A stretch of DNA of 64,000 nt from Cyanidioschyzon merolae (Eukaryota), in the NCBI GenBank assembly GCA_000091205.1, contig AP006486.2; one strand, given 5' to 3'. The translations under genes and the position numbers were made by a program. Numbering within the stretch: position 1 is the stretch's first letter; each line of letters starts with the position of its first letter. This document shows positions 33,655-56,373 of this stretch, piece by piece. A model generated the notes under the pieces. That model had not been told where the DNA came from and searched no databases. It was given only the letters and a program-made list of their open reading frames with translations.

Positions 33655-36286
33655 CGATCACGAGGCACGCCATACAGCAGCAATGCTGTAAATACTGGAG
33701 TGCGCCGGGCGCTCCGTACCGCACAAGTGTATGGGCCGGCTGTCGAGGCTTGTTGTGAGCGATCAAAGACACAGTTCATGTCAGTGGTGTTTGTACGAGT
33801 CGGTGATGTAGGCGTTCTCGGGAGCGTTGACGGGAGGCCTGTTACATTGTCGGAGGTGGGTATTGAAGAGTGTTTTCGGAGCGGACGTGCGGGTCATGGA
33901 ACTTGACGGGTTTTTGGAATGCTTGACGAATATTTCTGATCACTGATGGCAAGTGCGGAGTCGCCGGGGAACCCGATCATTGCATGCGTTTTGTCCGGAT
34001 AAGGCGTACCCGGCAGGACGCAGGGTGCCTTGATGTGACTCGTGTGCGTTGTTAGGGAGGGCGTTTCGTCGATGGACAGCGACTACAGCAGCGGTGCAGC
34101 CCGTGTTGCGCTAGGCGTCGACGTGAGGCTCAGTAGCCGGAAAATGATCGCTGGATCAAGAGTCGATACTCAGCGAAACGGTCGGTCTGGAGCTAGCGGA
34201 TCTTTTTGGGGTATCCAGAGCGATTCAGTGGTCTTTTGCATTGATTGCCGATTACCATCTGCTATCCTGGGGATTCTGGGTAAGTTCAACGGGCGTGCAT
34301 CGACAATACAGTCCTGGAGTGTGCTTCGGGTGTCGCTGCGCGCCGCTGCCTGCGATGCACGTGTCGCTGCGACGCAAGACAGCGAACACGAGCACTCGGA
34401 AGCGCGACGTCAACAGGCATCGAAGCGAGCACCTCGTTGCAGTCATAGAGCCATGAGTTGCGACCATGCTGGTGCAGATGCAGCGTACAAAAAAAGGCAC
34501 CAGGTCAGCTTCATTGACTTGGCAGAAGCGCATGAGCAAGCGAGCCCGCACCAATGCCCATGCCCGAATGCGCTCTCGCTATACTCGGGTTCGGTGGACA
34601 TGGAATGCGGCATCGCTTGCGCTGTTCCTGCCTTTTGATTTCTTTGAAACGCTCGTCGATGTGCAGCATCGGTATCCAAGGTGTGGCAATAAGAGCTTAC
34701 GTATTTATAGATATTGCTTGAGGCTCCGGTTCCTGTTTTCGGAATCGATGGTACGAATCTTCGCAGCTAGACTAGGCTACTTCCCCAGAATCTATGTATT
34801 TGGCGACGCTGTCGAACAAGTGTTCCTAAAATGGCCGAAATCTGCATCCTGTTCATCATTAAAATCTCCCATTCCTCTCATATGCACACGTGTAGCACCC
34901 TCAAATGATGCCGTCTTCAAGAAGTATATCCGAAATCTTCATCCAATTCATCATGAAAAGCTTTCGCGCTTCTCGTTTCTTTACGAGTATCATCCCCAAA
35001 TCATGCATTTTTCAAGTTTCCGATCTTTTTCCGGTCCGAGGAAGCTCATATGCTCAACGATTGAATGCAGCTGGATTCATGAGGAAACATATTCGACGGC
35101 TCCCGCTGACCACTTTAGGCGTTCATGGAGGAAACCTAGCAATCGCTTCCAATGGACACTAGGTCGACGTTGTGCATGAAGGCGACGTAGACGGACCAGC
35201 ATGTATAGACTCATTTGCTCGCCTGGATTTTTCTTGCAGAACTTGTTTCATCATGGACAAAATCTCGTTCCGCACATCCTCTTCCGGATCGAACAGCATG
35301 GGCTCGCGCACGCACCAGACAGAGTACCCGCCGAGGGTATCGCGCGGAAGAAGCCCCTGATCGTCAGGACCGGCAGCGGGTGCGAAAACCGAAGAGGTCG
35401 GCATCGAACGTAGCCTCTTATACCCGTCCAGGGCATGTCAAGAGAAATGAAGCAAGCGTCCGCGCGCCATAGCGCGGCGCTTGGAGAATCATGCCTCTTG
35501 GACATGCGGGCTTTCCTGATCACAATCAAGCATCACTGCTGCGAAAGGCGCAGCGCGGCGGTGCACAAAGGGCATGGAAACGGAAAGCAGGACATAGATC
35601 GCAGCTTTCGACTGTCGATGAAATTCGGTGATAACTGCTGGATACTACTTCTTCGGGACTTGAACGGAACCATCGGCATCCTCCAACTGTTAAGAACAGA
35701 GCTCTATGGAAAGAAGAACCCGTCGTATTTACACCTGGAGATAAAAGAGAGGAGAGCGCCTGCCGAGACTGGTGTTAGTGACTCTCTGGGAAGCATCGCG
35801 AGCTCTCGTGCGAACGCGCTAATGCGCTGCATCGACCTGCTCCATCAGATGCCGACATACGTGTAGCACAAACACCACGCAGCTCAGTACCAGCACGACA
35901 TACCCAAAGCTCGGTACGTACCTTCACCTGTTGGTGCTCAATGCAGCTCGAGTCGTCGCCAACGCCTTCCGAATACGCCTTGTGCCAAGGCAGATGCACC
36001 TGCCTCCACCAGCAGCTCCGGAAACGATGCGGCGCGCGCTGATCGCCGTGCGTGTGTGCGTGCGAGCATGCGAGCGTGCGTGCGTGATTGCATGCGTGCA
36101 CGGCGGTAATCGCGCCTCCGTGAACCAGCCACAGCGTCGGATTCGATCGCCGCGCGGCTGCATTCACGGAAATCGCCTGATCAACAGCATTGTTCTGCGC
36201 TGGGCGTGCTACCCGATCGGTGCGACGGTGAATACGCTGGTGCTCCAGTCGCTCGCTTTCGTTTCACTCGTAACCAATCAGTATCC

Positions 36287-37357
36287 ATGCCAAGTGACGG
36301 ATTTTGTTTCGTCAGTACTTGGTCGGGCGTGCATGCTGTGCGGACGCCGCAGCGACCGGTGTGCGGGTCCGTCGGACACGCGATACCACGTCACCGACTC
36401 TGGAGACGACGTGCAGGCGTACTTGGCACGCAAGCGAGTACAGTGCGCTCAGAGGGCACAGTCTCCGTGACAGCACCGCGTCGTCAGCAGGGTCTCATTC
36501 AGCACAAACGAGAAGCCTTCTGGTTCTATCGTTTTCTCTCCCTCGTCTATGATACGGTCGTGAATCCCTTTCACTGGACGACTGAGATGCGCGACGCATC
36601 CCTGCGTCAAGCAGGTTTGGAAGAGGGGCGCGGGCGTCCTGACTTTAAAGTGCTTGATGTTGGTGGAGGAACAGGTTTCTGTACGGAGGGTATCGTGCAG
36701 TACGTTTCGCCGAGTCAAGTAACGCTGCTGGACCAGTCGCCACACCAGATGCAAGTTGCAAAGCGCAAGCCGAGTCTCCAGGGCGTAACGTTCGTCCAGG
36801 GCGACGCTGAAGCACTCGCTTTCCCAACTGACTCGTTTGACCGCGTCGTCTCGGCGGGCTCGATCGAGTATTGGCCAGAGCCGCAGCGCGGCATCGCTGA
36901 AGCGTACCGCGTGCTAAAACCTGGCGGCTTGGCGACGATCATTGGGCCGGTACGCGCAACCAACCCAGTTAGTCGCTTTTTTTGTGACTTGTGGATGCTT
37001 TTCCCCATGGAAGAGGAGTATCGTGTATGGTTCACTCGTGCCGGCTTTACCGATCTCAAGGTTTCCTACATAGGCCCGCCAGCATACAAAGGTATTCGGC
37101 AGCATGGGTTGATCATGGGGCTAACCATCACTGGTCGCAAACCAGCGCCAGGGGAGGCGAAAATCCAGCTGGGTCCCATGCGGGAGCGGTTGGATCAGTC
37201 GAAACCGATGTCACTGGGAGAGCGCTTGATATTCTTGGCGCGATGGATCCTTGGATGTATCGCTGGATTTTACTACTTTGTGCTTCCATTTGCGATCATG
37301 TTGTATGCCGCCATCTTCATTCGAGACTCAAAACGCGCCAACAAGGAAGCTGCTTAG
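36287..37357 (+). CDS. VTE3: MPBQ/MSBQ methyltransferase (VTE3/APG1; chloroplast inner-envelope 37-kDa protein E37 family): SAM-dependent methyltransferase of plastoquinone/tocopherol synthesis with a ~65-aa N-terminal presequence
   Basis: LIQHKREAFWFYRFLSLVYDTVVNPFHWTTEMRD...VLDVGGGTGFCTEGIV...VTLLDQSPHQMQVAKRK...GDAEALAFPTDSFDRVVSAGSIEYWPEPQRGIAEAYRVLKPGGLATIIGPV...FFCDLWMLFPMEEEY..WF..AGF.D...YIGP.AYKGIRQHGLIMG...TG.KPA.GE...QLGP is near-colinear with plant VTE3 from the mature N-terminus to the C-terminal TM helix. First ATG at 36287 (track start 36206 is GTG). Confidence 0.85.
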   Translation: MPSDGFCFVSTWSGVHAVRTPQRPVCGSVGHAIPRHRLWRRRAGVLGTQASTVRSEGTVSVTAPRRQQGLIQHKREAFWFYRFLSLVYDTVVNPFHWTTEMRDASLRQAGLEEGRGRPDFKVLDVGGGTGFCTEGIVQYVSPSQVTLLDQSPHQMQVAKRKPSLQGVTFVQGDAEALAFPTDSFDRVVSAGSIEYWPEPQRGIAEAYRVLKPGGLATIIGPVRATNPVSRFFCDLWMLFPMEEEYRVWFTRAGFTDLKVSYIGPPAYKGIRQHGLIMGLTITGRKPAPGEAKIQLGPMRERLDQSKPMSLGERLIFLARWILGCIAGFYYFVLPFAIMLYAAIFIRDSKRANKEAA

Positions 37358-43389: not shown

Positions 43390-44340
43390 ATGGAAGCAGC
43401 AGTGGACTGGTATGACTTTTGGAACTATTATTACTTGGGCAAATACCAGGCTGCCAATGACGTGTGCACGACCCTACTAGAACCGAACCAGTGGCCTCGG
43501 TCGGTTCTCCTGGCAGTGATCCGTTTACGACTTGCGTTGCGCGACCTGGAAGGGATTCGCGCTCTCCGGAACCTAGTGAACGACACGTGGACCTCCTCGG
43601 TTATCCACGAGCTCATCGAGACACTCCAAAAAAACGTGCCTCCCATAGACGACGGGGAACGCTTGCGTTCGGTCGTGTTCGGAGACGGGTCAGCGCTCGA
43701 CGCGGTCGATGAAGCGGGACGGCTGCTAGCAGCGCTGGCGCTCCAACGAGCAGGCCTGTACCTGGACGCTCTCGAGACGCTGCCACTGTCTCGTTGCGAA
43801 AACGATGCGGAATCAAGAGCGTGTCGTATCTGTTTATGGTTGCACCTCAACCGGCTGGACCGGGCACAGCTCGAGCAACAGGCGCTTGAGCACTGGTTCG
43901 AGCGACAGCTCGCCGACGGCGATCAGCGTGCCGTCGGAACACTGGTACAGCTGAGCAGGGCAACGCTTGCGGTAGCTAGCAACGACGCTGAAGACGTCGC
44001 AATCGAAGCTGCGTTGCGTTCGTGCAGGGATCTCGCAGAGCGCTACGGGCCCTCGACGAAGCTACTGAACCTCACCTACTTGTGCCTGGTACGTCTGGGT
44101 CGTACCGAGGCATCCGAGAGCACACTGCAGCAGGCGATGAACCTGGATGCACAAGACCCGGATACCATGGCGAATACTGCTGCCAGTGCCGCGAAGACAT
44201 CGATGATGATGATGGCGTTTCCGGAAGCCGCAACAGCGACCCAGCGCCCTATCGAATATCTGCGCAAGTATGCCCCGTGGCATCCGTGGATTCGTGCTCA
44301 GGATGACTTTGAACGCAAGCTCCGGGGCTTGGCAACCTGA
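43390..44340 (+). CDS. COPE: Coatomer (COPI) subunit epsilon
   Basis: N-terminus WYDFWNYYYLGKYQAANDV vs human COPE LFDVKNAFYIGSYQQCINE. C-terminus HPWIRAQDDFERKL vs HPFIKEYRAKENDFDRL. TPR-like helical body, 316 aa. ATG verified at 43390. Confidence 0.7.
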   Translation: MEAAVDWYDFWNYYYLGKYQAANDVCTTLLEPNQWPRSVLLAVIRLRLALRDLEGIRALRNLVNDTWTSSVIHELIETLQKNVPPIDDGERLRSVVFGDGSALDAVDEAGRLLAALALQRAGLYLDALETLPLSRCENDAESRACRICLWLHLNRLDRAQLEQQALEHWFERQLADGDQRAVGTLVQLSRATLAVASNDAEDVAIEAALRSCRDLAERYGPSTKLLNLTYLCLVRLGRTEASESTLQQAMNLDAQDPDTMANTAASAAKTSMMMMAFPEAATATQRPIEYLRKYAPWHPWIRAQDDFERKLRGLAT

Positions 44341-44400: not shown

Positions 44401-47400
44401 TCACGCCCGCGATGGTGGACCCCGTCGCGCCGCTCGCTTCTGGGTACGGTATCGCTCCACGATGGTCGACAAGTGCGGTGTGGGTAGCGCGGCATTTCTT
44501 GTTCGCTCTCGCTCCCTCAAGACTCGTTGAAACGCTTGCCAGAACGCCACTATCTCATCGAAAGTGGGTCGTTGCTGTCGTCGCTGACGGAAACAGCCAT
44601 CTAGAAGCGATTTCAGGCCTTCGTCGGTGTCCGGTGGCGCTCTGAGACGTTCACCGCGCTGCGCTACTCGATAAATGACCTGAATGGGGTGTTCATCGGA
44701 CCAGGGCTTGTCACTGGTGATCAGCTCCCACACAATAACGCCGTAGGACCAGACGTCGCTCTTCTCATCGACGGTTTCTTGACGCATGACCTCGGGCGCC
44801 ATCCACTCGGGCGTACCCGCAGCACCCGTTGCCAACATGGTGTGCACACGAGAGCGGCTCAGACCAAAGTCGGTGACAATGGGCGTGCCTGTTTCGGCGT
44901 CGATGAGCACATTCGGGGACTTGAGGTCCCGATGGATCACCGGTGGCTGCTGCGCATGCAAGTACTGAACGCCTTGGGCGATCCCGAGAGCCAGTTGGGC
45001 AATTTCGGCGAGGCTGAAGGCAGGGCCGTCCGCAGCGGCCTTGCGCGCATGAATGAGACGATAGAGTGAGCCGCCGCTCACAAAACCCAGCACAATGCAG
45101 AGATGCGGTGACTTGGTTACCGCACCGATAAAAGGCACGATGTTCGGATGTTTCAATCGGCTGAGGAGAACCATCTCTTTCTGGAAATCCTCCACGGTTT
45201 CCAGACTGTAACCGTCGTCGTCGCGGGTCAGTTGTTTGACGGCGACGATGACACCGCGCCATTCGGCCATGAACACTTCACCAAAGGCACCGGCTCCGAG
45301 TTTGCTTCCAAAGCGAAGCTCTTCGTACGGAATATCCCATTTTTCACGCCATTCTCGGTCAAAAAGCAGTGGGGCATTCCCGTAATATTCCATCTCCGAG
45401 GCAGTAGATCCGTCGATGGGCCCGTCTTCCGCCTGTTGCTGCTGTTGTTGTTGTTGCTGCTGAGACGCTTCGCCAGCGGCGTTCAAGTCGCGCGTTCGAG
45501 CCGCCTGTAATGCTCGCTGTGCCTCTGTGTGCAGGTCGCGATCCGGCCTGGTCGATTTGTCTGCGAGCCATCCAGAAGACAGCGCGGATGCGGCATCAGC
45601 AGGGCCCTGCATGGTGCGTCGCTCCTCGAGGGCGCGTCCTCGAGCATCCGATGCCAACGCTGACTGCTGCTGCTGCCACATCTGCTGAGCGAGCGCACTC
45701 CTGCTCTGCTGCTGACGCAGGTGATCCACGCGTTCAAGACGACGATGAATTTGGGCGAGTTCTCCGATCGAACGCGTCAGCGCCTCGTGGTTGCTCTCGC
45801 GGCAGTCCAGAATGCTGCTTTTCGGGATGCAGTGAACGAGGGCCGGCAGGTCTGTACTCCGCCAGTAGATCATAAAGACGGTTTCAGGTCCACGCTCTAG
45901 CGCTCGGCACAGGGCCAAGGAGAACAGCGTCGCACATTGAGGTGAACGAAAGAAACCGTCGGAAACCAGAGCGACAAACCTCTTCGAATGCAGCATCGAA
46001 CTGTACCATTCATCCATAAAGAAAGCGGAGCGAATATCGGCCTCTTGGTCGGGAGAAACCGGCCCGTCAGCTCGACCTTGCTCCGATTGTTGCGCGTAAT
46101 GCGAATGTTCTGCTGCTCCGAGCGCAACCGTTGTGCCTTCCACGAATCCAATTCGCTCAGCGCTAGCGACGGGTTCGCTTCTGTCGCTGGACGACCTGTG
46201 CTGACCCTGGCCAGGATTTGATGCTGTCCAGTGTGTCGTGGGTGCAGCTCCACGATGATCATTCCGTGCCGCCGCCGCCGCCGCCAAAGACGCACCAGTC
46301 AGATCCGCAGTGGCGGGCGCTTGTTCCGCACCATCCATCGCTGGCGTTTCAGCGCTGACGCCAGGTTCGTCGTCGGCGACACTATGTTCAGGCCCGCTTT
46401 CCAAGGGCTCAGTGACCGCGTCGGCTGCATGACGCTGGAGCGCACGCTCCCTGAGGCTCCCTCTTGTGACGCCCTGTGCGTCTCCTTTGGACGTCAATGT
46501 CGTCGTATCGACGGTCTGTGGCTCAGCAGTTGCAGGCGTCGCAGATGCACCCGAAAGATTCGGGAAACCCCAGTGCGCAGTGCGCAATCCCCCGTCGTTC
46601 GACGGGGCCGCAATGTCCCACTCTTGGCGTTCGACCAGTTCTGTCGCAGCAACGTCCAGTGCACGACTGTGCACATCAAACACCTTAAAGCCAAAACGCA
46701 CGCGCAGTACGTGAATAATTTCCCATGCAACTTTGGTATCGTCCCGGTGGTACAATACGAAAAAATCCCGTTCTAGGCGACGCTTCGACGATGCCATCGC
46801 TTGCGAGGTAGCAATGGTGTCCGCGACCGGAGATACCAACTCGGGTGCGAGTTCGCTGCGCGTCTCGCCAGGAGCGCCCGAAAGCGGAGGTGCATCTCCG
46901 ACGCCATCTCCGGTCTGCACCGAAGCGACATGCTCGGACTTGGAACGCTTCGGGTCATAGCGCCCCTCTTCATCCATGCACTCACGGAACGACGAGAGCA
47001 GCCGCTGAACGCTCGGCGTGCAGAAGCCTCGCGGCACCAAGATGCGAATGAGGGGCAAGCTCAACCCGGCGCTACACCATCGCAGGGCCGCATCCAGCAG
47101 GTATGTCAAGACGTCGACTGCATCGGCCGCATACTCGAGACACAGCGGAAACATGACACTGCGGATACCCGTTCTGCCAGAGCAGAGCAGTGTTAAAAAT
47201 CCAAAAGCATGTTGGATGACTCGCTTGTACGATTGGGCCCGGTCGCCGTCGATCACCAGAATTCGGCGGAATTCGATGCCTCGCGGACGCGGGCGATGCA
47301 AAACGTTCGTCAACCAGGCAGCGTAGTGTCGTCGATAGGCGCGCTGCGGTTTTGCCTCGGCAGCTAGATCTGAGAGTTCGAGGCCGACTGAGCGCAGCTC

Positions 47401-48741
47401 GTCGAGCACGCTAGGGAGCTCGCACGGTCTTTCGGACGCGAAGTTGCCGGCGTCGGGGTTTCGTGCGCTTTCTAGACGCTCCGCTGTCTGGGCGGAGCGG
47501 GCGCCCTCGGATGCCGCCTCAAGCAATGTTGAGTTCTGGGACGCATCCGCGTGATTCCCGTTTCGCTCATCACTCAACGCGTCGTTGGTGCTCGAAAGCA
47601 CCCCGTGTCGGGCGTAAATCGAAGACGGGCGCGCAGCGGCTCTGGCTTCTGCGGGCGCCTGTGTCCTGGATTTCGCACAGATGGCGAGCAGGTCGACGGC
47701 GTCACCAGGTTGCATGGACACCGGCGATCCCTCGCTTATTTCTACAATGGATCGGCCAGAACCTCGAAGGATCGTGAAATATTGAACGCAGTTGAACGAC
47801 TGCCGAGGCAGCGGCACGGGCGGCAACGATACCTGCGCACGCGCCTCCTCCTGGAGAGTCTGGGGGCGCGCCCCATCGCTATCGCCGGTGTTGTCCGCGG
47901 GAACGCTGTCGCCATTGCTATCAGCGGCAGCATCGGGGTAGGGCGTTGCCACTCGTGCGTTGGTATCCACAGCACTACCGTGGTCCCCTGAGGACACGGA
48001 TAGAGAGCCCTGTTCTTGCACCTGGTCATGTGCTGACCACTGAGTGTCGTCAGTCGCAACGTTATCCTCGCTTGTCGACCGTACAACATCGGCAACACCA
48101 CGCTGAGTTGACGACTCTGGAGCCGTCTCTGCCCCATTCTGGATTTGCATAGTAGATGCAGTTGCGCCTGTGGGTGCTGCATCAGGAGCCTCAGGCTGCG
48201 CGCTGACCCCTGAACCTGTCGATCGGTCGGATCCGCTCGCAGTGGGCAACCGACTCGATACATTCCTGGATTCCGCCAAGATCGGGCTTTCTGCCAACGA
48301 CCCGCAAGTTCCATCCGTAGATTGGAACTCCTTCGCGCGCACCTGCTGAGCAGCACTCGCCGAGTTTTGCGCACGAATCGAGCCTGATGTCGAAGGTGCC
48401 CCTTTGCGATGCCGTGGTCGTGCAGCTTTACCAGTTTTTGATGCACTTGCACTCTGGGGCCGGTCACGCGCTGCGATGCTCGTAGCGGATGCCGAAGTTT
48501 TGATGCGCTCGGGCGTCGTACTTCCCTGGGCCCAGAGAGCCGTACTGGCGCCGAGCTCTGACGGCCCCAGTGTCGCGCCCATATTTCCCAGACCACTCAG
48601 ATAGGATTTTGCGAGCCACGTCAATATTCGGATGGGGAATGGACGCTTATCTGTTGGATTTGGCGTACGAAGCAGGCGCTTTCGTTGTTGGACGCCTCTG
48701 TCGTCGAGAGGCGTCGTAGTATGTCCCGAAGAGGGCGCCAT
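44401..48741 (-). CDS. Large TIR-like domain + TKL-group Ser/Thr protein kinase fusion: low-complexity N-terminal region, unknown middle domain, TIR-like domain (nt about 45880-46780, split by a ~190-aa low-complexity insertion), poly-Gln, C-terminal kinase
   Basis: Kinase: GSKLGAGAFGEVFMAEWRGVIVAVKQL...VIHRDLKSPNVLID...VTDFGLSRS...GTPEWMAPEV...DVWSYGVIVWEL (Raf/IRAK-like TKL features). TIR-like: DFFVLYHRDDTKVAWEIIHVLRVRFGFKVFDVHSRALD vs plant TIR [34 protein letters not shown], and SKRFVALVSDGFFRSPQCATLFSLAL vs [22 protein letters not shown]. ATG verified at 48741. Confidence 0.75.
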   Translation of the reverse strand: MAPSSGHTTTPLDDRGVQQRKRLLRTPNPTDKRPFPIRILTWLAKSYLSGLGNMGATLGPSELGASTALWAQGSTTPERIKTSASATSIAARDRPQSASASKTGKAARPRHRKGAPSTSGSIRAQNSASAAQQVRAKEFQSTDGTCGSLAESPILAESRNVSSRLPTASGSDRSTGSGVSAQPEAPDAAPTGATASTMQIQNGAETAPESSTQRGVADVVRSTSEDNVATDDTQWSAHDQVQEQGSLSVSSGDHGSAVDTNARVATPYPDAAADSNGDSVPADNTGDSDGARPQTLQEEARAQVSLPPVPLPRQSFNCVQYFTILRGSGRSIVEISEGSPVSMQPGDAVDLLAICAKSRTQAPAEARAAARPSSIYARHGVLSSTNDALSDERNGNHADASQNSTLLEAASEGARSAQTAERLESARNPDAGNFASERPCELPSVLDELRSVGLELSDLAAEAKPQRAYRRHYAAWLTNVLHRPRPRGIEFRRILVIDGDRAQSYKRVIQHAFGFLTLLCSGRTGIRSVMFPLCLEYAADAVDVLTYLLDAALRWCSAGLSLPLIRILVPRGFCTPSVQRLLSSFRECMDEEGRYDPKRSKSEHVASVQTGDGVGDAPPLSGAPGETRSELAPELVSPVADTIATSQAMASSKRRLERDFFVLYHRDDTKVAWEIIHVLRVRFGFKVFDVHSRALDVAATELVERQEWDIAAPSNDGGLRTAHWGFPNLSGASATPATAEPQTVDTTTLTSKGDAQGVTRGSLRERALQRHAADAVTEPLESGPEHSVADDEPGVSAETPAMDGAEQAPATADLTGASLAAAAAARNDHRGAAPTTHWTASNPGQGQHRSSSDRSEPVASAERIGFVEGTTVALGAAEHSHYAQQSEQGRADGPVSPDQEADIRSAFFMDEWYSSMLHSKRFVALVSDGFFRSPQCATLFSLALCRALERGPETVFMIYWRSTDLPALVHCIPKSSILDCRESNHEALTRSIGELAQIHRRLERVDHLRQQQSRSALAQQMWQQQQSALASDARGRALEERRTMQGPADAASALSSGWLADKSTRPDRDLHTEAQRALQAARTRDLNAAGEASQQQQQQQQQQAEDGPIDGSTASEMEYYGNAPLLFDREWREKWDIPYEELRFGSKLGAGAFGEVFMAEWRGVIVAVKQLTRDDDGYSLETVEDFQKEMVLLSRLKHPNIVPFIGAVTKSPHLCIVLGFVSGGSLYRLIHARKAAADGPAFSLAEIAQLALGIAQGVQYLHAQQPPVIHRDLKSPNVLIDAETGTPIVTDFGLSRSRVHTMLATGAAGTPEWMAPEVMRQETVDEKSDVWSYGVIVWELITSDKPWSDEHPIQVIYRVAQRGERLRAPPDTDEGLKSLLDGCFRQRRQQRPTFDEIVAFWQAFQRVLRERERTRNAALPTPHLSTIVERYRTQKRAARRGPPSRA

Positions 48742-54284: not shown

Positions 54285-55103
54285 CTAATTGTCGCTGCTT
54301 GCTTGGATACGTGTTAAAATCTGCAGCAGATTCAAAAACAGGTTCAACACATCAAGATAGAGAGAGACGCAGGCAATCGACCAATCGTCCGGGCCAAGGT
54401 GATGAATGATCAGACTGGTGTCGAAGAGAATATAGCCACAGAAAACGAGTGCGGACACCACGCTCAGGACGAAGGAGAACGTTGTCGAAAAATGCCCCAT
54501 CCATCCCAGTACCGCATTCAGGACTGCTGCCCCCAACACGACGAGCAGTGCTGCGCCTAGGAACCCTCCGAGGAAGCTGAAGTCGCGCTGCGAGCGCCAA
54601 CAGTAAATCGTCAGTCCGCCAAAAACAAGCGCTGTCAAGAAACAAGCCTCAAAGACGATGAAACCAAACCCTGAAGCGGCGTATATAGCGCAGATCATCG
54701 CAACTGACAGAGCCTCGAAGAACGTGAAGACGCTCAGCGCTGGGAGACTCCACTTTGGCCGCGAGCGAGCCCAGAACAGACCCACCAGCGCCCCCAGTGT
54801 GCCCAAGAAGCACACCCAAATCAGCCAGGAAGATGCAGAAATTACCCATTGATTGAGGCTCCCACTGATCATGAACGCGCCCGAGAGCACCGCAGTAAAC
54901 CCGAGCTGGGCTGCGAGCACTGTATACACCTTTCGCAGAAAGTCCAAGCGGATGCGCTCCATGCAAGCTGCAACGGTCACCCCGACGTCATATTCCTCGA
55001 GGTCAGCGTGTCCGAGCGCCCGTGAAGCACTGCGCTTCACACTGTACTCGTACGTGTTGTAGTTGCCGCTCTCGATATCAACTGAAGCGCTTTTGGACCC
55101 CAT
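54285..55103 (-). CDS. TMBIM / Bax-inhibitor-1-like (Lifeguard/GAAP family) seven-TM protein
   Basis: RLDFLRKVYTVLAAQL...FEALSVAMICAIY...TALVFGGLTIYCWRSQRDFSFLGG...LVFCGYILFDTSLIIHHLGPDDWSIACVSLYLDVLNLFLNLLQIL parallels TMBIM4/GAAP (R.AFIRKVY..L..Q...FT.LEALTVAV...T.VFFGLT.Y.LQSK.DFS..G...F.G.IIYDT..L.H.L.PE......ISLYLD.INLFL.LLR.L). ATG at 55103; an N-terminal extension is possible. Confidence 0.75.
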   Translation of the reverse strand: MGSKSASVDIESGNYNTYEYSVKRSASRALGHADLEEYDVGVTVAACMERIRLDFLRKVYTVLAAQLGFTAVLSGAFMISGSLNQWVISASSWLIWVCFLGTLGALVGLFWARSRPKWSLPALSVFTFFEALSVAMICAIYAASGFGFIVFEACFLTALVFGGLTIYCWRSQRDFSFLGGFLGAALLVVLGAAVLNAVLGWMGHFSTTFSFVLSVVSALVFCGYILFDTSLIIHHLGPDDWSIACVSLYLDVLNLFLNLLQILTRIQASSDN

Positions 55104-56373
55104 CACGACAGCGTGTGCCCTGGAACGAGATTGTCGGAGAGGGCGCGTCAGTCGCTCGAAGAGCGACACGCAGGCGTCCGCGTCGTTCGCGTGCGTTCCA
55201 GCGAACGGGACTTTAATGTATATTGCTATACAAATAATGACACTCGTGGTGCCGACAGCCTTGCGCACCCGCGCGCCCCCTCAAGCAGCACATCCGGCGC
55301 CTGATGTGCGATCCAGCGAGGCCTGCACCGTTGAACACAATTCGCAGTCAACTGGGTCATACCTGCATAATCATAGACAACGATTCACAGCGCGACGCAT
55401 ACTGGTCGTCTCGGGGGATGCAGCGCCCGATCAGCACGCGATGTGCGTAGCGTGTGTATGCGAGCTTTTTCGCACCATATCTGCGTTCACTTGCTAGCTC
55501 GAAAGAGCGCGTTCAGAAACCGCAGAGCCGCGCATGTGAACGCGATCACGCGCTCGGCACAGCATCCTGCAATCATGGACAATGGCGCTCGAGCCGTAGA
55601 CAGGTAAGCAGCGTCTACGGCCTGTTGCCGCGCGGTCTGTGACCTCCAGCGCGGCACCAACCGTGGTACGCAAGGCTGAGATCTGCGCCTTTACCCTCTG
55701 AGGCTGCAAACCAGAGTCCCAGTCGAGAAGACACCCGCTCTAACGCCCTATGCTGTTCCACCTGAGCTCCAGATGTTATCGATAAAGAATCCCTGTGAAC
55801 GGCATCGCGCTTCCTCCGGTACGCCAAGACGCAGCTGCCTTCACAGTCTCTCATGGCGAACAGAGCGTCGAGTGCGCGATTCGTGCCAACATCACGAGTC
55901 TCTTGTGCACGAGAAGCGTGGAATGCGTCGAGCACAAAGGTCGACCCCATGCCAGCGCCCTCCCCGAGCCTGCATCCGTACCAGGCGACGATGGCATGTA
56001 GCTAGCCCACCATGCACCCAAGCGGTAACGCGTCAGCGACAGTGCCGCCGCCGCCGCCGCTGGCGCTGGCGCTGGCGCCTGCAGTCGCTGTGAACGCGCC
56101 ACAAGGGCCAGTCTGCAGGATGCTGTGTAAATGCGACAATCCGGTCCCAACGGCTGAACGTGCTGGCGACGCTCGTTGGCATCCGCTTCTGACTCTAGGT
56201 GCTATGCCTCCGGAGACCTACGTGCGGCAGGGACAGTGCCAACTCGGTGCATAGCGGCGTTTCCGAAGAGGTTGTCACGGCGGAAACGGGTCACTGGTTA
56301 GCGCTGAGATCATCAGTGAAGTCGAGAGTAGCCTGGGTGACACGGGTTTGCGGCAAAGATAGAAATCAAGGAG

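Follow-up and report, generated by a model that had tools for sequence, protein, structure and literature searches.

The presence of a protein kinase and a TIR domain in one polypeptide chain has been described for choanoflagellates, whose "Kinase TIRs" consist of a Pkinase domain followed by a TIR domain, possess no transmembrane segment and are cytosolic (Richter et al. 2018, eLife, PMC6040629). These proteins were proposed to bypass the adaptor-mediated recruitment of a kinase, and in the data set of that study the architecture was unique to choanoflagellates (PMC6040629). In the animal TLR/IL-1R-MyD88-IRAK pathway, the TIR domain and the kinase reside on separate proteins, which are bridged by death domains. 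In type II Thoeris, a TIR domain makes an ADP-ribose (ADPR)-derived signal and a Macro domain binds this signal (PMC11204291). Here we describe a gene of the red alga Cyanidioschyzon merolae, located at 44401..48741 on the minus strand of a 64,000-nucleotide stretch of contig AP006486.2 (this whole stretch is referred to as the window), whose predicted product carries a Macro-like domain, a TIR domain and a Raf/CTR1-like kinase domain in a single chain.

The open reading frame (ORF) extends over the whole interval given for it in an earlier reading of the window (the original prediction) and is identical, by exact-sequence look-up, to BAM79110.1 / XP_005535396.1 / UniProt M1V432 of C. merolae 10D, which is annotated as 'Raf-related MAP kinase kinase kinase, theta-type'. 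Near-identical copies of 1398-1451 aa are found in hot-spring metagenomes, with an identity of 97-99% in those aligned. The original prediction took the ORF for a fusion of a TIR domain with a complete tyrosine kinase-like (TKL) kinase in one gene. This fusion stands; the ORF equals the annotated protein, the insertion within the TIR domain is in frame, which gives no sign of two merged genes, and the same architecture recurs in other red algae. All the motifs quoted for the TIR domain lie where they were placed in the translated ORF, with DFFVLYHRDD at aa 659-668 (46738-46767), GFKVFD at aa 684-689 and SKRFVALVSDGFFRSPQCATLFSLAL at aa 919-944 (45910-45987). The features are listed below in the order of the protein; pLDDT denotes the predicted local distance difference test score of the structure model.

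44401..48741, minus strand: whole gene, 1446-aa protein (from the ORF list and exact-sequence look-up)
47800..48741, minus strand: N-terminal region, aa 1-314, rich in Ser, Ala, Thr and Gly, presumed disordered from a composition scan
47656..47799, minus strand: predicted N-terminal strands of the Macro-like domain, aa 315-362, IVEISEGSPVSMQPGDAVDLLAICAK; bacterial profile positions 4-47; pLDDT 95-97
47413..47655, minus strand: insert 1, aa 363-443, an 81-aa low-complexity loop within the Macro-like domain, in the gap between profile positions 47 and 52; pLDDT <50
46942..47412, minus strand: predicted Macro-like core, aa 444-600, with YRRHY at aa 469-473 and with W476, P532, W555 and G559 conserved with bacteria
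46777..46941, minus strand: linker between the Macro-like and TIR domains, aa 601-655, poorly conserved (28-30% identity to other Cyanidiales); pLDDT ~47-57
46666..46776, minus strand: predicted N-terminal half of the TIR domain, aa 656-692 (betaA DFFVLY, alphaA, betaB FKVFD); bacterial profile positions ~205-240; pLDDT 90-97
46054..46665, minus strand: insert 2, aa 693-896, in the place of the BB loop, ~205 aa, in frame and coding-like; pLDDT <50
45730..46053, minus strand: predicted C-terminal half of the TIR domain, aa 897-1004 (alphaB, betaC SKRFVALV, alphaC SPQCATLFSLAL, betaD, alphaD, betaE, alphaE)
45925..45927, minus strand: codon of Leu939, at the position of the catalytic Glu of NAD-cleaving TIR domains (alignment column and comparison with TLR2)
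45316..45729, minus strand: linker rich in Gln, Arg and Ala, aa 1005-1142, with Gln runs at aa 1023-1026 and 1094-1103
44545..45315, minus strand: kinase domain, aa 1143-1399, complete, of TKL type (Raf/CTR1/MLK-like), from Pfam and PDB matches

Judged by profile alignment and by the structure model, the two motifs first noticed belong to a single TIR domain that is split into two halves, aa 656-692 and 897-1004. The native protein scores 16.9 bits with Pfam TIR_2 (PF13676), over aa 908-981 and profile positions 40-109 only, and this is below the gathering score of 28 bits. When the insert is deleted by hand, aa 656-692 cover profile positions 1-40, the match extends over positions 1-109 and the score rises to 31.2 bits; with a cut placed more conservatively it is 24.5 bits. 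P0020 of Agarophyton and two further red-algal proteins, P0019 and P0021, have an uninterrupted TIR_2 match together with a kinase, the TIR_2 scores of 40.8-42.2 bits being above the threshold, and in the bacterial relatives the TIR_2 match is strong, at 75-88 bits. The native sequence thus falls short of the Pfam threshold, the hand-spliced sequence exceeds it with one of the two cuts, and the uninterrupted red-algal orthologues exceed it. A phmmer search with aa 300-1010 against 1.84 billion representative proteins yields 80 matches at a library-wide E<=1e-3, and among them are bona fide TIR proteins whose alignment falls on aa ~900-1000, such as P0028 (E 2e-9), which itself scores 85.9 bits with TIR_2. 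A profile of the whole family matches solved TIR domains, with TLR15/TLR2 at E 1.6e-15, MyD88 at 1e-13 and TIRAP at 1e-12, as well as plant and bacterial TIRs. A phmmer search of the PDB with the hand-spliced TIR domain gives nothing significant (E 0.36), both matches being the Hydra TRR-2 TIR.

A structure model of native aa 305-1005 was built with AlphaFold2 (AF2) from a 46-sequence alignment. Every domain piece has a pLDDT of 90-97 and the inserts one of <50, and the predicted template modelling score is 0.66. In the model a complete flavodoxin-like TIR fold (betaA-betaE / alphaA-alphaE) is assembled from both halves, comprising betaA (658-664), alphaA, betaB (687-689), a helix at 693-711, alphaB (897-918), betaC (919-926) and alphaC (934-950), followed by betaD, alphaD, betaE and alphaE, so that the structure prediction called for in the original prediction comes out in favour of a TIR domain. 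The top structural neighbours of the TIR model are IL-1RAcPb, TIRAP and MyD88. The second motif had been assigned to alphaC-betaD; according to the predicted secondary structure, it comprises betaC and the start of alphaC instead. The conserved DCRE motif (aa 979-982, 45796-45807), which is common to bacteria and red algae, is located in betaE.

The low-complexity insertion reported between the two motifs is real, but its length is ~205 aa (693-896) rather than ~190 aa, and ~175 of its residues are predicted to be disordered, following a single Cyanidiales-specific helix (aa 693-711). Each of the four Cyanidiales sequences examined has such an insert, of differing length, the counterpart being ~105 aa in P0017 and ~200 aa in Cyanidiococcus, and it is missing from the florideophyte, Rhodosorus and bacterial relatives. 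An intron at this place was considered and rejected, since the insert is in frame with 0 stop codons (the other two frames have 2 and 9), has a coding-like codon-position composition, is kept in all the Cyanidiales examined and lies within the annotated protein. The BB loop normally mediates TIR-TIR contacts and completes the active site in assembled TIRs. In C. merolae there is no short BB loop; the insert replaces it, and the BB-loop D/G/W residues that are invariant in bacteria are lost. The BB loop of florideophytes is short, likewise without the bacterial D/G/W.

Nearly all of the distant phmmer matches cover two regions of the query, aa ~443-590 and the TIR domain, and the first of these corresponds to the N-terminal ~190 aa of the bacterial proteins. 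By sequence comparison and modelling, this part of the chain is a Macro-like domain that precedes the TIR domain and was overlooked in the original prediction. The model has the mixed beta-sheet sandwiched by helices that is expected for a Macro fold, and the best Foldseek matches in the PDB are the Macro domains of Af1521, PARP15 (macro 2), macroH2A, PARP9 (macro 2), MacroD2 and YmdB, with E from 2.8e-4 and target TM-scores up to 0.64, spanning both aa 315-362 and the core. Among the bacterial relatives, P0108 is named 'O-acetyl-ADP-ribose deacetylase' by JGI, and P0024 has a weak match to the NCBIfam ADP-ribosylglutamate hydrolase (E 0.0023). The N-terminal strands, IVEISEGSPVSMQPGDAVDLLAICAK, are aligned with the bacterial consensus IELxxGDLxxxPxxxxVDxLVVSAF; taken alone, the profile match of aa 315-362 is weak in C. 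merolae (E 0.07) and stronger in Cyanidiococcus (E 3.7e-5). The Pfam Macro profile matches neither the C. merolae protein nor the bacterial relatives. The Gly-rich loops that bind ADP-ribose cannot be recognised even in the consensus of the bacterial proteins, which has VSAF/SLIGAL and AxGDQ, not NAAN/GGGV and GxYG, and the red-algal domain is without even these motifs. We therefore name the domain "Macro-like". Insert 1 is missing in the florideophyte and bacterial relatives; it shares 18% identity with Cyanidiococcus, where the domain core shares 77%. At 47323-47337 all aligned red-algal members have the basic motif YRRHY, where the bacterial relatives have DLRxxxSCW.

The sequence comparisons indicate that the Macro-like and TIR domains are a single module, homologous from end to end to stand-alone bacterial proteins of ~340 aa. 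A profile made from 25 bacterial proteins (342 positions) aligns with the compact red-algal proteins over positions 2-339, with E 1e-51 to 7e-58. On the C. merolae protein the same profile gives three matches in collinear order, namely aa 319-362, then aa 444-688 with E 4.5e-19 for positions 52-240, and last aa 909-997 with E 3.5e-15 for positions 253-338. The bacterial proteins, which include HEU0076118.1 of a Longimicrobiaceae bacterium, P0028, P0029 and P0108, are homologous over the entire module. They differ in that they have no kinase and no inserts, and in that they have kept the catalytic Glu along with the remaining invariant polar residues.

The catalytic Glu in helix alphaC (in a SxWCxxEL-type motif) is required for the cleavage of NAD+ in SARM1, plant TIRs, AbTir and ThsB. 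At this position all 39 of the aligned bacterial relatives have Glu, while the four Cyanidiales have Leu and the three florideophytes Ala. The residue in C. merolae is Leu939, and it is preceded by Thr, which leaves both positions without an acidic side chain. In the family-profile alignment to TLR2, the column of Leu939 coincides with the conserved Glu of WCKYEL. In the other red algae examined the motif is S[VK]ECTEAFSLA, with Ala in the Glu column and Glu one residue earlier. The original prediction had envisaged an NAD-signalling TIR and named the catalytic Glu as a point to check; with Leu939 in its place, an NAD-cleaving function is unlikely. The innate-immunity-like sensor that it offered as the other option is speculative. 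Further bacteria-invariant residues are replaced in red algae, including the Asp of GDL (aa 339) by Ser, D468 by Ala or Ser, G535 of the AxGDQ loop by Leu, Gln or Arg, and the BB-loop residues mentioned above, and the Cyanidiales are also without the betaA Ser of the SYS motif. The core residues W476, P532, W555, G559, D659, F661, Y664, S933, C936 and DCRE are kept. The domain pieces of Cyanidioschyzon share 58-77% identity with those of Cyanidiococcus, as against 18-31% for the inserts and the inter-domain linker. Both TIR halves thus appear, from sequence comparison, to be under purifying selection, with the folds constrained and the ancestral active-site residues gone.

The kinase domain matches Pfam PK_Tyr_Ser-Thr with E 3e-58 and Pkinase with E 1.3e-54, and all its catalytic motifs are intact (GxGxxG at 1147, K1169 of VAVK, HRDLKSPN at 1270, DFG at 1291, and APE). 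The best solved relative is Arabidopsis CTR1 (3ppz, E 3e-69), followed by MLK1, DLK, MLK4, TAK1, ZAK and B-Raf. The original prediction, which described a poly-Gln tract followed by a complete TKL-type kinase, holds in both respects, the tract being the Gln run of aa 1094-1103. Its wording "IRAK/Raf-like" holds for the Raf side, given the match to CTR1, and fails for IRAK, which is absent from the best 60 PDB matches of the kinase; moreover, the protein has no Pfam match to a death domain. By its sequence, the kinase is a Raf/CTR1/MLK-like mitogen-activated protein kinase kinase kinase (MAPKKK), as annotated, rather than an IRAK/Pelle kinase. Therefore, the analogy to the animal TIR-to-IRAK route is a conceptual one only. 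The kinase domain of C. merolae is 45-48% identical to those of the Macro-TIR-kinase proteins of other red-algal classes, and the linker from DCRE to the Gly-rich loop measures 99-185 aa across the red-algal proteins. The two Gln runs behave differently. The run at aa 1023-1026 (45664-45675) is a coding repeat of polymorphic length, with 4 Gln in strain 10D and 9-10 in other strains of C. merolae and in metagenome variants, and the run of 10 Gln at aa 1094-1103 (45433-45462) does not vary among the aligned sequences.

The family with the order Macro-like domain, TIR domain and kinase is found in Cyanidiophyceae (Cyanidioschyzon, Cyanidiococcus), Florideophyceae (Gracilaria, Agarophyton), Bangiophyceae (Porphyra purpurea, P. 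umbilicalis, Pyropia yezoensis) and Rhodosorus marinus; several of these sequences are partial, and the full three-domain chain is seen in Cyanidiales, Agarophyton/Gracilaria and Rhodosorus. Full-length orthologues of Cyanidiales found by phmmer are KAK4533178.1 of Cyanidiococcus yangmingshanensis (1575 aa) and proteins from metagenomes, 1559 and 1236 aa long; the same search also yielded shorter proteins of other red algae and many bacterial ones of ~340 aa. The proteins of Agarophyton chilense and Gracilaria domingensis are 860-870 aa long, with the kinase after the TIR domain where the sequence is complete. The survey of red-algal orthologues suggested in the original prediction thus bears the fusion out, as one transcript or gene encodes both TIR and kinase in Agarophyton, Gracilaria, Rhodosorus and Pyropia, the sequences being transcript-derived in Agarophyton and Rhodosorus. 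Automatic annotation already marks TIR_2 together with a kinase on some red-algal entries, such as those of Rhodosorus. In a rough neighbour-joining analysis (Kimura distances, unrooted, some bootstrap replicates with saturated pairs), the red-algal modules are monophyletic in 100 of 100 bootstraps. The remaining relatives of the module appear to be prokaryotic, are diverse among themselves and retain the catalytic residues. Given this monophyly and these relatives, it is most economical to assume that the module was acquired from bacteria once, long ago, and was then fused to a MAPKKK; the acquisition likely preceded the diversification of red algae.

The bacterial proteins themselves appear uncharacterised; Pfam recognises the TIR domain alone, and PADLOC and NCBIfam give generic TIR matches. 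Their matches to the ThsB models of PADLOC are weak (E 1e-3 to 3e-7) and run through the TIR domain, and no PADLOC model, Thoeris included, matches aa 470-1010 of C. merolae. Since the catalytic Glu is retained and the family seems not to have been characterised, it is a candidate for a stand-alone anti-phage gene. Its range is known from one named metagenome-assembled genome and from metagenomes, and a scan of bacterial genomes with P0029 as the sole query confirmed no locus. The three bacterial gene contexts examined all differ. The neighbourhood of P0028 (337 aa, L001 6001-7014) resembles a defence island, with PLDc_2, GIY-YIG, DUF6884 and DUF6979, a type III restriction ResIII helicase together with an N6_N4 methylase, and AAA_14/DUF4143. 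P0108 adjoins an 869-aa Pkinase-TPR gene and a FHA-GAF-HD gene. In P0022 (952 aa; L004 8001-10859) and P0034 (1415 aa), both from bacterial metagenomes, TssB/VipA and TssC/VipB, i.e., the complete sheath pair of a type VI secretion system in one polypeptide, are fused to the Macro-like and TIR domains. The P0022 gene lies outside a type VI secretion operon, among genes for a DnaA_N protein, ParA/ParB, a HsdM methylase, a transposase and a beta-lactamase. In these two proteins the sheath could be a polymerising support for the assembly of TIR domains.

How might such a protein work? By analogy with known TIR and Raf-family proteins, we somewhat favour a non-catalytic Macro-TIR module that would serve for regulation or oligomerisation and control a cytosolic MAPKKK. 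The chain runs from a presumably disordered N-terminus through the Macro-like (aa 315-600) and TIR (aa 656-1004) domains and a Gln-rich linker to a CTR1/Raf-like kinase (aa 1143-1399). The module, no longer cleaving NAD, would be the regulatory input of the kinase, in the place of the Ras-binding or receptor-binding N-terminal regions of Raf and CTR1. Self-association of TIR domains, or the binding of a partner, would gather the kinase domains and lead to their dimerisation, trans-phosphorylation and activation. The disordered inserts may tune this association, for example as targets of phosphorylation. Activation of the kinase by TIR assembly would parallel both the activation of Raf-family kinases by dimerisation and the scaffold TIRs of animals. 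Several points weigh against this proposal. The chief internal objection is that the ~205-aa insert in the BB loop of Cyanidiales may abolish canonical TIR assembly instead of tuning it. Oligomerisation, ligand binding and regulation of the kinase are all projected from the known behaviour of TIR domains and the Raf family. In non-cyanidialean red algae, ECTEAF, with its Glu one residue before the catalytic position, is strictly conserved, and these proteins may have kept a residual or altered chemistry. The AF2 fold assignment is not independent of homology, because bacterial Macro-TIR proteins make up most of the alignment behind the model, which so leans on the same sequence relationship. 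Finally, the direction of transfer from bacteria to red algae is read from an unrooted tree.

The module might instead act through a ligand. A possible but doubtful explanation is that the Macro-like domain binds an ADPR-derived nucleotide made elsewhere in the cell (ADPR, isomers of cyclic ADPR, O-acetyl-ADPR or poly-ADPR), upon which the TIR domains would assemble and the kinase would be activated, making the protein a one-chain second-messenger receptor that feeds a MAPK cascade. In its favour, support for the Macro fold is good, red algae show strong conservation of the domain, which carries the basic YRRHY specific to them, one bacterial relative lies in a defence-island-like context, and the Macro domains of type II Thoeris ThsA bind ADPR conjugates made by a TIR domain (PMC11204291; bioRxiv 10.1101/2024.01.03.573942). 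However, bacteria-invariant residues near the expected pocket are replaced (the Asp of GDL, D468 and G535), the Pfam Macro profile does not match, canonical Gly-rich loops for ADPR are not visible even in the bacterial consensus, and C. merolae has no known source of such a signal, although no search was made for one. An anti-phage-type bacterial Macro-TIR module wired to a MAPKKK, which would sense an ADPR-derived nucleotide, or TIR assembly set off by a pathogen or by stress, and feed a MAPK cascade within one protein, as an independent, adaptor-free counterpart of TLR-MyD88-IRAK that would predate the split of the red-algal classes, is a rather unlikely, speculative extension. That the TIR domain still consumes NAD+ or makes a nucleotide signal, with the kinase as its regulator or its output, we regard as very unlikely. 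Bacterial TIR proteins, with the catalytic Glu in 39 of 39, are the closest relatives beyond the red algae and weakly resemble ThsB-like and other defence TIRs, but Leu939 and its neighbouring Thr stand where SARM1, plant TIRs, AbTir and ThsB are established to need Glu, the BB loop that completes the active site is replaced by the insert, and the betaA Ser of SYS is lost in Cyanidiales. It is highly improbable that the module is a functionless, decaying relic on a MAPKKK with a long disordered N-terminus. The loss of catalytic and pocket residues, the two large disordered inserts, one in each domain, and the sub-threshold native TIR_2 score would fit such decay; decay does not, however, agree with domain halves that are 58-77% identical to Cyanidiococcus beside 18-31% in the inserts and linker, with a module kept together with the kinase in four red-algal classes and bearing the near-invariant ECTEAFSLA, DCRE and YRRHY, or with packed domains of which AF2 is highly confident. 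To an artefact, i.e., a chance resemblance to TIR, two merged genes or a hidden intron, we give hardly any credence. The native Pfam match is sub-threshold and covers half a domain, and the hand-spliced score depends on the cut (24.5 vs 31.2 bits), yet there are library-wide significant matches to bona fide TIR proteins with a collinear profile match, the family profile reaches E ~1e-15 against TIRs in the PDB, the ORF is identical to the annotated protein with 0 stops in the frame of the insert, and transcriptome-derived proteins of other red algae also contain the fusion.

Like the red-algal protein, the choanoflagellate Kinase TIRs combine a kinase and a TIR domain in one chain. By their published description, they have the order Pkinase-TIR and no reported Macro domain, whereas the red-algal order is Macro-like-TIR-kinase. 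The opposite domain order, the Macro-like domain and the bacterial nearest relatives of the TIR domain together make it probable that the red-algal fusion is independent of the choanoflagellate one. The original prediction contrasted the TIR-kinase fusion with the animal pathway, where the two parts are separate proteins; there is a precedent for such a fusion in the choanoflagellate Kinase TIRs (PMC6040629). Plant group-16 TIRs (Toshchakov & Neuwald 2020) were considered as a further precedent and set aside, the discussion of that paper speaking of protein kinases whereas its results describe P-loop NTPase fusions. The animal TLR/IL-1R-MyD88-IRAK pathway is alike in that non-catalytic TIR scaffolds end in the activation of a TKL kinase, and differs in that the parts are on separate proteins and in that the red-algal kinase is not IRAK-like; the nearest relatives of the red-algal TIR domain by sequence are bacterial. 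Type II Thoeris also uses TIR and Macro domains as one functional unit, but there the two domains are on separate proteins (ThsB and ThsA) and the TIR domain is catalytic. Plant CTR1/Raf-like MAPKKKs, with CTR1 as the closest solved kinase, share the layout of a long N-terminal regulatory region and a C-terminal kinase. The N-terminal regions of CTR1, EDR1 and Raf carry other modules, such as a receptor-binding region, a Ras-binding domain or C1, and none of them is known to have a Macro-TIR module. Our literature search found no description of the red-algal Macro-TIR-kinase family or of single-chain bacterial Macro-TIR proteins, which is no proof that none exists.

The N-terminal region of the protein (aa 1-314) has no detectable domain and no Pfam family. 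Several metagenome gene calls (1398-1399 aa) start at Met54, not at Met1, and the true start codon is therefore uncertain; aa 1-53 correspond to 48583-48741. Around the gene, the window contains a coatomer epsilon subunit at 43390-44340 (+), convergent with the kinase gene and with its stop 60 nt from the stop of the latter, a class I S-adenosylmethionine-dependent methyltransferase at 36206-37357 (+) and a Bax-inhibitor-1 family protein at 54285-55268 (-). These neighbours are ordinary eukaryotic ones, and the gene is an integrated nuclear gene. Many ORFs of 100-280 aa overlap the kinase gene in other frames; they are most likely by-products of the local ~60% G+C.

TIR domains connect the anti-phage defence of bacteria, the immunity of plants and the innate immunity of animals, and the way in which they became linked to kinase cascades has been known in animals alone, through death-domain adaptors. 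The C. merolae protein points to a second, probably independent route to this coupling, in which a bacterial-type Macro-TIR module is fused directly to a Raf/CTR1-like MAPKKK. C. merolae has a very small genome, and targeted gene replacement is possible in it. The published statement that the kinase-TIR architecture is unique to choanoflagellates is qualified by the red-algal family, and the uncharacterised bacterial Macro-TIR family is a candidate defence gene itself. In red algae the fusion has been kept across four classes despite the loss of the Glu needed for NAD cleavage, and it would thus offer a natural example, outside animals, of an enzymatic TIR domain becoming a non-catalytic signalling domain.

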